The notes under the pieces were generated by a model. The model saw nothing but the letters and a program-made list of their open reading frames with translations, did no database searches and was not told the DNA's origin. A DNA stretch of 64,000 nucleotides from a bacterium (GTDB taxonomy: Bacteria > UBA8248): the NCBI GenBank assembly GCA_965199855.1, contig OZ241326.1, positions 640,001-704,000 of the forward strand, read 5' to 3'. This document shows, one piece after another, positions 5,977-9,204 of the stretch; the stretch's first letter is position 1, and each line of letters opens with the position of its first letter. Made by a program: the position numbers and the translations under genes.

Positions 5977-6579
5977 TCATTTTGACTGCATGAGCGTCTC
6001 GATAAAGCATTTCGCGTGAGGGGACGCTTCCTGAACTTTGGCCGGATCCAGCGTCGCCAGAATATCGAAGCCGTGCGAGCCCTTGTCGTAGCGGCGTTTC
6101 GCAGTCTCTCGGGCGGCTTGCCCGAGGCCGTCAAGAACGTCCTTTTTGGAAATCTCTTCGATTTGCGGATTCGCCGGCAGCGCGCTCTCCCGAAAACCCT
6201 GGCCATAAAACTCCCCGAGCGCGTTCTTGTCCGCAAGAAACCAGGACTCCATAACCTGCACCATGAAATGGCACTGATCATTGCTCGCCTCGCTGGGTCG
6301 TTCCCATGAGTCATGCTCCCGCTCTTCAAGGTGTTGCCATGGGTCTTTTGCTCTTATCGGGTCTTCGGAGTCCACGAGAAGGATGGCGGTTGAATCCTTG
6401 ACGTTCTGAATATGAAACTTGAATCTTTCGTAAGCGTCCCTGCGAGTGCCGCAGGCAACGATTCCCGGCATTCGTCCGCTCAATCCCGCCTTCTCGATAA
6501 AAATCCTGAAGCCTTTGCGGCACGCCGTTCTCTGCGATGTCCGCGCGCCGCCGCCTTCTACGAAGAGCTTGACGCTCAC
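5977..6579 (-). CDS. DUF4276 (TOPRIM/RloB-like) partner of the adjacent ATPase
   Basis: VKLFVEG, LLVDSE and MESWFLAD motifs. The GTG start overlaps the ATPase stop (GTGA). Confidence 0.8.
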   Translation of the reverse strand: MSVKLFVEGGGARTSQRTACRKGFRIFIEKAGLSGRMPGIVACGTRRDAYERFKFHIQNVKDSTAILLVDSEDPIRAKDPWQHLEEREHDSWERPSEASNDQCHFMVQVMESWFLADKNALGEFYGQGFRESALPANPQIEEISKKDVLDGLGQAARETAKRRYDKGSHGFDILATLDPAKVQEASPHAKCFIETLMQSK

Positions 6580-7772
6580 CACCGATTTCCCCCGATCTCT
6601 CCGCTTGTCCATAGCTCCCCGAGCCGATATTTTTCCAGCCAGGGTTTGAGTTCCTCCGCGTCGAGGCGGCGAAGCCGCGTCGCCCCGTCGGATTTCTCGC
6701 ACACGATTACGGCTTCCGGGACGTCCGTGAGCGCGTCCACGAGAATGTCGGAGTGCGTCGTGACGAAGAGCTGGCTGCGCGAGGACGCCTCGACCAGGAG
6801 TTTCGCCACCTCCGGAATCACGTCCGGGTGCAGGCCGGTCTCCGGCTCCTCGATGCAGATAACCGGCGGCGGGTCCGGATGGCAGAGCACGGCGAGCAGG
6901 CAGAGATAGCGCAAACTCCCGTCGGAGAGCCGCGTGGCGGGCACGGGATGCTGAAGGCCCTCTTCGTGGAAGAACGTTTGGACTGCGCCGTTATTTATGT
7001 TGGGGACGATATCTTCGACCGACGGGTAGAAATCCCTTATCCGGTCCAGCATCCGGCGTTTTACGGGGGGGCGGTTTCTCAAATCGCTTAGCACCAAACC
7101 GAGATTCGAAGCGTCCTCCAGAAGGTAATGCTGTATGGAATCGACCGCTGCGGATAGACGGGGCGGCTTGTCGCGCTTGAAACTCCATTCGCGATAGAAA
7201 CGGATGCGCTCGAATTGCTCGACCAGGTAGGTCAGCGCCGGATAGGAGTCGGGGTCTCGCCTCTGCGACAGAATCGACTGATCCGGAATCATTTCTTCTC
7301 GCTTCAAACCGCGCTCGCGTTCGCCCCCATCTTCATAGAAAACATTGAGCACCGGGTAACCTTCTTTATAGTCGTAATAAAGGTATGGCGTATCATTGTC
7401 CTGGTATGGCTTCTCGTTCTCTATCGCTTCGTCCTTGAGCGTGAAGCGCGAGCCGGTTTCCGTGAATGACAAGCGGTATCTGAGCGGTTGAGGTCCCTTC
7501 GGATATTCAACGGTGACGTCCACAGTCGCCGTGTTGAGGCCGGAAGCTCCCTTCCAAAACCAATCTCGGACGCCGCCACCTTTTTGAATCGGCTCTTGAA
7601 TGCTTCCGGGCGCGGCCGCCAGAAGCGACAGCACTTCGATCAGGTTGGATTTCCCGGAAGCGTTCGGCCCGATGAGGACGTTCAGCGGCTCAAGAGGAAA
7701 TTCATCGTCCCAGGAGTCGTAGGAGAGAATGTTGTCCAGACGGATCGTTCGGATAAACCTCTTTCCTTCCAT
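6576..7772 (-). CDS. ABC-type AAA ATPase (AAA_21/AbiEii-like)
   Basis: Walker A GPNASGKS, signature LSDGS, Walker B CIEEPE and H-loop TTHS. Confidence 0.88.
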   Translation of the reverse strand: MEGKRFIRTIRLDNILSYDSWDDEFPLEPLNVLIGPNASGKSNLIEVLSLLAAAPGSIQEPIQKGGGVRDWFWKGASGLNTATVDVTVEYPKGPQPLRYRLSFTETGSRFTLKDEAIENEKPYQDNDTPYLYYDYKEGYPVLNVFYEDGGERERGLKREEMIPDQSILSQRRDPDSYPALTYLVEQFERIRFYREWSFKRDKPPRLSAAVDSIQHYLLEDASNLGLVLSDLRNRPPVKRRMLDRIRDFYPSVEDIVPNINNGAVQTFFHEEGLQHPVPATRLSDGSLRYLCLLAVLCHPDPPPVICIEEPETGLHPDVIPEVAKLLVEASSRSQLFVTTHSDILVDALTDVPEAVIVCEKSDGATRLRRLDAEELKPWLEKYRLGELWTSGEIGGNRW

Positions 7773-7888
7773 CCCCCGATCTCCTCTCGCCGCTAATGGC
7801 GAATGGCTCCAATCTATCAGCCGTTCGCTCGAATTTGTCGAGTCGTTCGTTCATCAGCGCCCGGGCGTCGGGACGCCGGCCCCCCCCT

Positions 7889-8338
7889 CTACCCCCGCTT
7901 GGCGAAGAACTCCCGGAACCTGTCGGCGAGGGGGGCGGCGCGCCAGTCGAAGCCGGTGGCGTCCGCCGCCCGCTCCATCTCCTCCGCCGTCCAGCCGCCC
8001 TCCTCCGCCAGGTGATGCAGCGAGCAAATCCCGGCCCGCCCCGTCGCCTTTCAGTGGACGAAGGCGGGCCCTTGGGCCTTCGCCTCGCGCAGCGCGCGAC
8101 TCACCTCGGCGAGGGAGTCCGGGCTGAACTCGACCGGCGAGACGGGGACGTTGACGTAGCGCATCCCCAGCCGCTCGGCCTCGGCGCTTGCGCGTTCGGG
8201 GGGAAGCGCGCCCTGATCCTCGTCGGGGAAGCGCGTGTTGATGATGGTCCTGACGCCTCTGGCGGCGAGGGCCTCGAGATCGCCGGGGGCGGGCTGCGAG
8301 CCGAAGGCGACATCCTCCGAAGCGTGGAAATAGTCCAT
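7889..8338 (-). CDS. DUF442/PTP-like phosphatase-sulfurtransferase domain protein, predicted selenoprotein (UGA at 8051-8053)
   Basis: GSQP...GVRTIINTR...GMRYVNVPV is followed by AFVH-UGA-KATGR, matching the HCxxxxR loop. The frame stays open for 53 more codons to TAG, with a hairpin 11 nt after the UGA. Confidence 0.75.
8020..8039 (-). promoter_or_regulatory. Candidate bacterial SECIS hairpin of the DUF442 gene
   Basis: GCGGGC-CGGGAUUU-GCUCGC stem-loop starting 11 nt after the UGA. Confidence 0.5.
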
Positions 8339-8409
8339 GAGAAGCTCCATGCGAAAGCGGGCGCGCCGCCGTCGGCGCGCTTCCCGAAAGAGGAGAGCCG
8401 GCGGCGCGG

Positions 8410-8970
8410 CTAGCCGTTCGCCGCGCCCTCGACGCTGAACGGCTCGCCGTTCACCTCGACGGTGGACTTGAGGGGCACCGGCTCCGTGATGAGGCTCTCG
8501 GCGAAGCAGCCGTTCCTGGCGTTCTTGATCAGGCGGGCGAGCCTCTCGGCGGGCTCGTCCGACTCCACCCGCAGGTGGGTGTCCACGGCCTCCCACTTGT
8601 TGAACACCGTGCCCTTCAGGACGGAGCCGCCCAGGGTCTTGCGGAACCGGACGGAGACGCTCGCCCCCTTGATGGTCATCTTCATCATGTGCGCGTACCG
8701 CGACACCTGGGTGAGCAGTCAGAAGCCCGTCGCCATCGCCAGATAGGCCATCGGCGTGGGGTAGCGCCCCGTTCCGCCTATCTGCGCCCCCTCGTCGCAG
8801 AAAATCTCGTGCTCGCCGGCCACGCCGCGCTTGAGCTGGAGCGAGCCCTCGACCATCTCGACGCGGACGGTGCTGTCCGTGTAGAGGCCCCGGGCGGGGA
8901 GCTCCGGCTTGTCGATGACGCGCTCGCCGGGCGTCGTGGAGGTGCTGTGTCCGTCAATCGGCCCTTCCAT
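8410..8970 (-). CDS. OsmC/Ohr-like protein, predicted selenoprotein (UGA at 8719-8721)
   Basis: DEGAQIGGTGRYPTPMAYLAMATGF-UGA-LLTQVSRY...ARNGCFAE. The UGA sits at the first conserved OsmC Cys and the second Cys is retained. GAGGAGG RBS. Confidence 0.85.
8689..8706 (-). promoter_or_regulatory. Candidate bacterial SECIS hairpin of the OsmC-like gene
   Basis: GUG-(bulged U)-CGCG-GUA-CGCG-CAC, 12 nt after the UGA. The bulged U and apical GU resemble the E. coli fdhF SECIS. Confidence 0.7.
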
Positions 8971-9204
8971 GAATATCCTCCTCTCGTGGATGCGCGGTTC
9001 GGTGGTTTCCCCTTGCGCGGACAGGATAGGGCAAACGCGGGCGCGGGCATAGCTCCCGGCTCCCCGGGGCGGGAGGGGCGATTGCGGCGCCGCGGCAGGC
9101 CTGCTAAACAGAAGGCCCGCCGGTCGAATGGCGCACCCGCCTTTGGCGCGCGCAGGGAGCGGGGCGAACGCCCGCCTTTCCTTTTTTCGGGAGGAGACAC
9201 CGAC

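Follow-up and report, generated by a model that had tools for sequence, protein, structure and literature searches.

A DUF442-type gene with an in-frame TGA at the catalytic cysteine position is predicted to encode a selenoprotein

The 64,000-nucleotide stretch of DNA analysed here (the window) carries on its minus strand a gene that very probably encodes a true selenoprotein, a DUF442 protein in which selenocysteine (Sec), as deduced by sequence comparison, would be inserted at UGA96 in place of the catalytic cysteine. The explanation as a whole, namely a 149-residue DUF442 selenoprotein whose Sec serves as a rhodanese-type acceptor of sulfane sulfur, is considered likely; its functional part, sulfurtransferase activity granted that the protein is a selenoprotein, is argued by analogy and is given about an even chance. 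The host genome consists of a single contig of 3.04 Mb with a G+C content of 67%, and the positions of the features are compiled in Table 1.

Table 1. Features of the DUF442-type gene and its surroundings, in window coordinates.
Feature	Position	Strand	Basis or remark
DUF442-type candidate selenoprotein CDS, 149 residues (MDYFH...FFAKRG)	8338..7892	minus	translation; PF04273 match
Start codon ATG	8338..8336	minus	orthologues likewise begin ME/DYF
GGAG, Shine-Dalgarno-like, 6 nt 5' of the ATG	8345..8348	minus	read from sequence
In-frame TGA, codon 96, predicted nucleophile of the H-U-x4-R loop	8053..8051	minus	TGA in 39/39 and 48/48 relatives
Active-site loop H-U-K-A-T-G-R, codons 95-101	8036..8056	minus	H95, Cys and R101 kept in homologues
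Final stop TAG	7891..7889	minus	translation; orthologues end nearby
Predicted SECIS hairpin	8019..8040	minus	within codons 100-107 (G-R-A-G-I-C-S-L)
SECIS 5' arm GGCGGGC	8040-8034	minus	10 unpaired nt separate the UGA from the arm
SECIS loop CGGGAUUU, 8 nt	8033-8026	minus	G at loop position 2, then G
SECIS 3' arm GCUCGCU	8025-8019	minus	codes C105 and S106
OsmC-like selenoprotein gene, 5' neighbour	8970..8413	minus	PF02566, E 1.6e-13
UGA of the OsmC-like gene, GF-U-LLT	8721..8719	minus	catalogued UxxT type
Weak terminator-like hairpin in the 71-nt OsmC-like/DUF442 spacer	8396..8411	minus	consensus scan
AAA_21 ATPase gene (398 aa), then DUF4276 gene, directly 3' of the DUF442 gene	5977-7772	minus	

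The reading frame and the conservation of its internal TGA

The range 7889-8338 given in the preliminary description comprises the coding sequence together with its stop codon, and the feature was described correctly there. The frame reads MDYFHASEDV...GPAFVH up to the TGA and then continues through 53 sense codons (97-149, KATGRAGICSL...FFAKRG) to a TAG; the ends of the orthologues fall 0-6 codons from this stop, at TAG, TAA or TGA. The 53 codons had been read as the expected C-terminal helices, a reading borne out by an AlphaFold2 model that was built from an alignment of 23 family members and covers all 149 residues (mean pLDDT 93.3, pTM 0.89), in which the helices 100-114, 118-127 and 138-146 are integral parts of the fold. 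The read-through protein scored 47.8 bits against Pfam PF04273 (BLH_phosphatase, formerly DUF442; cut-off 26.1). Its alignment to the NCBIfam sulfur transferase model TIGR01244 spans residues 7-133, well beyond the UGA, with 50.5 bits against a cut-off of 85.85, so that the protein is a relative of TIGR01244 and no member by NCBI's rule. Pfam yielded no match to the rhodanese domain (PF00581) at E-values up to 0.1.

When 1.84 billion representative proteins were searched with a HMMER profile, 7,817 matches were obtained at E up to 0.001. Among the best 149 of these, the column aligned with U96 holds Cys in 136, Ser in five, Asp in two and Gly in one, and five proteins are truncated there. The loop is spanned by 143 homologues of this set, of which 141 have the His of position 95, 135 the Cys and 138 the Arg of position 101, which identifies H-C-x4-R as the signature of the family and places the UGA of AFVH-U-KATGR exactly on the nucleophile, the position claimed for it at the outset.

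The genome contains selA (548.3 bits, NCBIfam cut-off 267.9), selB (371.9 bits, cut-off 242.25) and selD (344 bits, cut-off 125), and the sole tRNA with the anticodon tca is tRNA-SeC (aragorn), so the full set of selA, selB, selC and selD on which the preliminary prediction depended is present. The selD gene (contig positions 2985603-2986568, minus strand) has an internal TGA of its own in the context RAGG-U-GSKLG, the selenophosphate synthetase being itself a selenoprotein. Decoding of the DUF442 gene as proposed here follows the textbook mechanism: the hairpin 11 nt past UGA96 would recruit SelB carrying Sec-tRNA(Sec), Sec would be inserted at UGA96 in place of the catalytic Cys of the H-C-x4-R loop, and translation would continue to the TAG.

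The TGA is conserved throughout one lineage. A six-frame search of 61 related genomes gave matches in 32, all within one family-level group; split by group, 31 of 36 genomes of this group had matches, against 0 of 24 elsewhere. Every one of the 53 near-full-length matches has an internal TGA (52 with one, one with two), and of 40 loci extracted, 39 have the TGA at the U96 column, the fortieth being a distant Cys-type homologue (LFHCQSANRTG). One genome per species was also scanned (185,579 species) with the peptide pattern GRAG[IV]CSLxH, which is specific to the Sec clade, and the scan therefore covers Sec forms of that clade only; it yielded 48 confirmed loci, in all of which the first in-frame stop is a TGA at codon 93-96, and which all derive from assemblies of uncultured bacteria bearing the titles Nitrospinota, Nitrospinaceae, Candidatus Tectomicrobia or bacterium. 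A profile search of 51 genomes of the phylum found the gene in 36, with TGA in all 57 full-span matches. The alternation of TGA and Cys that had been anticipated for this column thus takes the form of TGA in every copy of one lineage and Cys in most of the best homologues elsewhere. It had also been allowed that sequencing reads might show TGC or TGT instead. Contigs over the gene from four public runs (four studies) differ from the window at 0, 4, 7 and 13 sites, none of them at 8051-8053 or within the hairpin, so that the TGA is constant while other sites vary; the near-identical run is not counted as independent because it is possibly the source of the window DNA. Labels of sequencing runs hint at a sponge or marine habitat.

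A second DUF442 copy in the same genome (contig positions 2363529-2363972, minus strand; 48% identical) likewise has a TGA at codon 96 and ends at a terminal TGA stop, as do several orthologues of the window gene. Reassignment of TGA, that is, a changed genetic code, was ruled out because TGA terminates this paralogue and several orthologues. One paralogue copy in a related genome (L052, G009:C5:285452-286289) has a second TGA at the otherwise invariant W132 (TGG to TGA), and is possibly a pseudogene or the result of an assembly error.

The sequence behind the TGA appears to be translated. With all pairwise comparisons of 22 close orthologues pooled, codons 109-148 gave a pS of 0.383 and a pN of 0.093 (pN/pS 0.243) and codons 1-95 a pS of 0.384 and a pN of 0.089 (pN/pS 0.231); the two ratios indicate that both parts are under the same protein-level selection, and the conservation downstream on which the preliminary prediction had been staked equals that upstream. 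Were the TGA instead a genuine stop, the gene would yield a 95-residue fragment or be a decaying pseudogene with a downstream frame open by chance. Gene callers do stop there: 46 of the 47 public proteins of the clade that were found have 95 residues and none is full length, among them the NCBI record MCY3824120.1, named sulfur transferase domain-containing protein, and the N-terminal part alone, at 42.5 bits, passes the Pfam cut-off. In a 95-residue product, however, the nucleophile, the Arg of the loop and three helices would be missing. The 40 codons compared downstream show the same purifying selection as the upstream part, 38 of 39 copies have an open frame up to the conserved end, even at 36-45% identity, and both DUF442 genes of the genome have the TGA while no Cys copy exists. 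A genuine stop is accordingly the least probable of the readings weighed here, with next to no chance of being correct. The selenoprotein reading exposes a systematic annotation error, in which the public proteins of this clade that were found end before their catalytic residue.

The SECIS-like hairpin and its overlap with the active-site codons

The hairpin noted 11 nt after the UGA in the preliminary description has a 7-bp stem that is present and kept in 31 of 31 distinct sequences. The published model of the bacterial SECIS (bSECIS) has a loop of 3-9 nt, a stem of 4-16 bp, a G in the first two loop positions, a distance from UGA to loop of 16-37 nt and a minimum free energy of at most -7.5 kcal/mol (PMC13188914), and the hairpin lies within every one of these limits, with a loop of 8 nt, a stem of 7 bp, a spacing of 17 nt and -9.7 kcal/mol when folded alone. 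Single-sequence folding is not unusual for the G+C-rich composition (z -0.76, with 39 of 200 shuffled sequences equalling or exceeding its stability), and the OsmC-like and selD genes of the same genome have shorter G-led SECIS loops. The earlier ranking of this element as the weakest SECIS of three therefore stands for its thermodynamics and its likeness to the E. coli type; it does not stand in other respects, since the hairpin agrees with the bSECIS model and is the most conserved nucleotide stretch of the gene. An Rfam scan of positions 7700-9100 at E up to 10 gave chance matches only and no SECIS family.

Comparison between sequences is decisive in marking the hairpin as more than a chance fold, and its support for the predicted structure comes from invariance, not covariation. 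All 217 cells (seven pairs in 31 distinct sequences) are paired, against 33-56% in controls with the partner shifted by 1-3 columns, the common stem change is from G-U to A-U only (12 of 31 sequences), and double compensatory changes were absent among the 31 distinct sequences; because the stem is nearly invariant, the shuffle control of covariation is flat (500 of 500). Constraint is also visible at synonymous sites: the GCC, GGG, TGC and TCG codons inside the hairpin are fixed in 39 of 39 copies and the Arg codon is CGG or CGA only, which retains the pair, whereas GGC, GGG, GGT and GGA all occur for an invariant Gly located six codons 5' of the UGA. In codons 97-108 pS drops to 0.167, compared with 0.38 in the flanks.

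These observations also bear on whether the UGA might be decoded other than as Sec, by a near-cognate tRNA (Trp or Cys) or following reassignment in the lineage, a reading open to the extent that the inserted residue is one that we infer. We regard it as very unlikely: a canonically spaced SECIS-like hairpin and frozen synonymous sites would be needless for plain read-through, the residue aligned in homologues is the catalytic Cys, a classic Sec site, the only tRNA that could read UGA by its anticodon is tRNA-SeC, and TGA still ends the paralogue and several orthologues.

The putative SECIS is embedded in codons of the active site. R101, A102, G103, C105, S106, L107 and W132 are invariant among 23 sequences whose overall identity goes down to 40%. 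Of the 143 Cys homologues, 97 have A102 and 84 have G103, so R-A-G belongs to the family loop; position 105 is F in 37, L in 35, M in 24 and Cys in only seven of them, and S106 occurs in 14. Because C105 and S106 are coded by the 3' arm (UGC UCG), the RNA alone could have imposed both residues, and the SECIS may have done so; C105 may also have a catalytic role as a resolving residue. A SECIS overlapping active-site codons would offer a clean case of an RNA signal constraining a protein sequence.

Fold, genomic context and candidate chemistry

The model identifies the predicted protein as a single-domain DUF442 protein with the fold of PTP and dual-specificity phosphatases. Foldseek placed the DUF442 structures 2f46 (TM 0.75/0.78) and 3gxh first (TM range 0.72-0.78), with TpbA, PTPMT1 and further dual-specificity phosphatases next in rank, and a PDB profile search retrieved 2f46 at an E-value of 9.2e-10. 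The phosphatase signature is C-x5-R; loops of rhodanese type have four residues between the nucleophile and the Arg. With a loop of U-x4-R and no invariant Asp in residues 60-75, which we take to be where dual-specificity phosphatases carry their general-acid Asp, the protein departs from the classical PTP and dual-specificity phosphatases.

The gene immediately 5' encodes an OsmC-like selenoprotein, which standard ORF calling splits in two. Of 20 loci with 1.5-kb flanks, 19 have this OsmC-like gene, with a TGA at the same site, 5' of the DUF442 gene, and its product may be a functional partner. A consensus scan for terminators found three sites in the region against 0.9 expected, one of them in the spacer between the two genes. 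The AAA_21 and DUF4276 genes on the 3' side form a two-gene module of a kind frequent in defence islands, which is missing here in two relatives checked (L063 and L064); the opposite flank carries a glyoxalase-family gene and dnaX. The second DUF442 copy (L047/L060) adjoins genes for a transglutaminase-like protein and a hopanoid-type squalene synthase. Ten further loci have a transglutaminase-like gene adjacent in six cases and ilvD in five, beside squalene/phytoene-synthase and amine-oxidase genes, and this ilvD/transglutaminase-like neighbourhood looks like the older location, but offers no hint of the function. Neighbouring ORFs in G+C-rich loci were sometimes picked on the wrong strand, and entries without a family carry little weight there. 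At one locus of another genus (L061, G034:C212:19500-28000), the Sec-type DUF442 gene adjoins genes for a molybdopterin oxidoreductase and a nitrate-reductase-delta-type chaperone.

The distribution of the TGA form fits a single origin within the lineage, as judged from a quick, unrooted maximum-likelihood tree that combines 23 Sec with 96 Cys sequences. Twenty-one Sec sequences and one Cys protein (P0048) form a clade with an SH-aLRT of 97, the other two Sec sequences stand beside it at an unresolved fork, and two changes on this tree account for the Sec label, where shuffled labels need 21.4. P0048, a metagenome protein of 162 residues, is the closest Cys-type homologue (205 bits); it lies inside the Sec clade, keeps G-V-C-S and may represent a reversion from Sec to Cys. 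A Cys-type PF04273 gene was not found in the host genome.

In the sulfurtransferase mechanism envisaged, Sec96 would accept a sulfane sulfur as an Se-S intermediate, to which R101 and the helix dipole would lend stability, and would then pass the sulfur on to a thiol or sulfite acceptor. Sulfane-sulfur transfer is favoured because of the DUF442 domains that have been tested, the four-residue spacing of the loop and the lack of an invariant general-acid Asp. The DUF442 domain of Xylella Blh is reported to use thiosulfate as donor of sulfane sulfur and cyanide or glutathione as acceptor (PMC5823870), and the DUF442 domain fused to SQR in Cupriavidus pinatubonensis is a rhodanese that is inactivated by C94S (PMC9163753). 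No sulfur-metabolism or sulfide-oxidation genes lie next to the copies examined, the ten further loci included, and a search of the genome for a selenoprotein-type SQR (NF049943) gave 24.8 bits, far below the cut-off; the chemistry assigned therefore depends on homologues that are about 20% identical.

A true selenoprotein of different chemistry is possible, although we hold it to be clearly less probable than not. It could be a redox enzyme operating through a U96-C105 selenenylsulfide, perhaps serving the OsmC-like selenoperoxidase or reducing an oxyanion, for which PTP-type arsenate reductases provide a model, or it could be a Sec phosphatase. C105 is invariant in the Sec clade and rare among the Cys-type homologues, the OsmC-like gene is almost always adjacent in the genus, and selenoprotein genes that lie together often act in one pathway (PMC13188914). 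The codons for C105 and S106 are nevertheless part of the SECIS 3' arm, the hydrophobic residues at site 105 of the Cys homologues suggest a buried core position, and the pairing with the OsmC-like gene is limited to one genus and interrupted by the weak terminator-like site. As for a phosphatase, the fold also matches the true phosphatases TpbA and PTPMT1, but the loop spacing is that of rhodaneses and DUF442 and the general-acid Asp has no invariant counterpart. A more far-reaching proposal, that this first natural PTP-fold selenoprotein is no plain sulfurtransferase and forms a two-selenoprotein redox module with the adjacent OsmC-like selenoperoxidase, with a U96-C105 selenenylsulfide and co-evolution of SECIS and active site, is regarded as doubtful.

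Comparison with known selenoproteins and DUF442 proteins

We read the gene as representing a candidate new selenoprotein family, so far confined to one uncultured lineage labelled Nitrospinota or Tectomicrobia. The suspicion that the family might be new, voiced in the preliminary description, agrees with the 2026 catalogue, the NCBIfam selenoprotein models and the full text of the literature, none of which lists it. Table 1 and the text of the 2026 review, which covers 119 prokaryotic selenoprotein families and subfamilies, contain no PF04273, TIGR01244 or PF22741, the same table has no phosphatase-fold entry, and its sulfurtransferase entries are all rhodaneses (PF00581, NF041203 and NF045694) (PMC13188914). 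A scan of NCBIfam release 20 at E up to 0.1 hit only NF040641, TIGR01244 and NF011283 and no selenoprotein model. The full-text literature search found no selenoprotein paired with DUF442, TIGR01244, PF04273, BLH_phosphatase or 'sulfur transferase domain-containing', and for selenoproteins together with Nitrospinae or UBA8248 it returned the BSepDB paper only. The main texts of BSepDB, deep-Sep and SelCysML mention no phosphatase, sulfurtransferase or DUF442, although the supplementary tables of BSepDB, deep-Sep and the 2026 review could list the candidate; the excerpted parts of the GOS and Olavius surveys name sulfurtransferases of rhodanese type only (PMC2398784, PMC1976440). If the prediction is true, a family and a previously unrepresented fold are added to the prokaryotic selenoprotein families, of which roughly 119 are known. 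In BSepDB, assemblies filed under UBA8248 (labelled Nitrospinota or Nitrospinae) are among the richest in selenoproteins, with 48-54 genes, and if the genome belongs to UBA8248, as the labels of its relatives imply, the selenoprotein count of this lineage would still be incomplete.

The window protein shares its fold (TM 0.72-0.78) and the position of the H-[C/U]-x4-R loop with Blh of Xylella and Agrobacterium, with the SQR-fused DUF442 domain and with 2f46 and 3gxh, and it resembles known DUF442 proteins in being a single domain of about 150 residues. It differs from them in the predicted Sec in place of the catalytic Cys, in its identity of only about 20% to the solved structures and in the A-G-I-C-S-L stretch peculiar to its clade, which appears to double as the SECIS. 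Unlike Blh and the SQR fusions it is free-standing, lacking a fused persulfide dioxygenase or SQR domain, and its neighbourhood contains neither sqr nor pdo.

Compared with TpbA, PTPMT1 and the Siw14/PFA-DSP phosphatases, the fold as a whole and the site of the nucleophile are shared, but the loop has four residues, not five, and a conserved general-acid Asp is missing; Cys-based PTP and dual-specificity phosphatases have no natural selenoprotein entry in the 2026 catalogue. The OsmC-like selenoprotein (PF02566, UxxT) belongs to a catalogued family, which is that of the neighbouring gene and not of the DUF442 gene, and its SECIS, with a short GUA loop and a bulged U, is more E. coli-like than that predicted for the DUF442 gene.

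A parallel is provided by the rhodanese-related sulfurtransferase selenoproteins (PF00581, COG0607 and COG2897; forms 1-5), putative sulfur-transfer proteins in which Sec likewise occupies the place of the catalytic Cys in a short, anion-binding loop ending in Arg. Rhodanese-related selenoproteins have been predicted by the same comparative logic, according to the catalogue (PMC13188914) and to parts of two surveys (PMC2398784, PMC1976440). The DUF442 protein belongs to a different fold and family, and if the present reading is true, it would mark a second, independent recruitment of Sec into active sites of the sulfurtransferase type.
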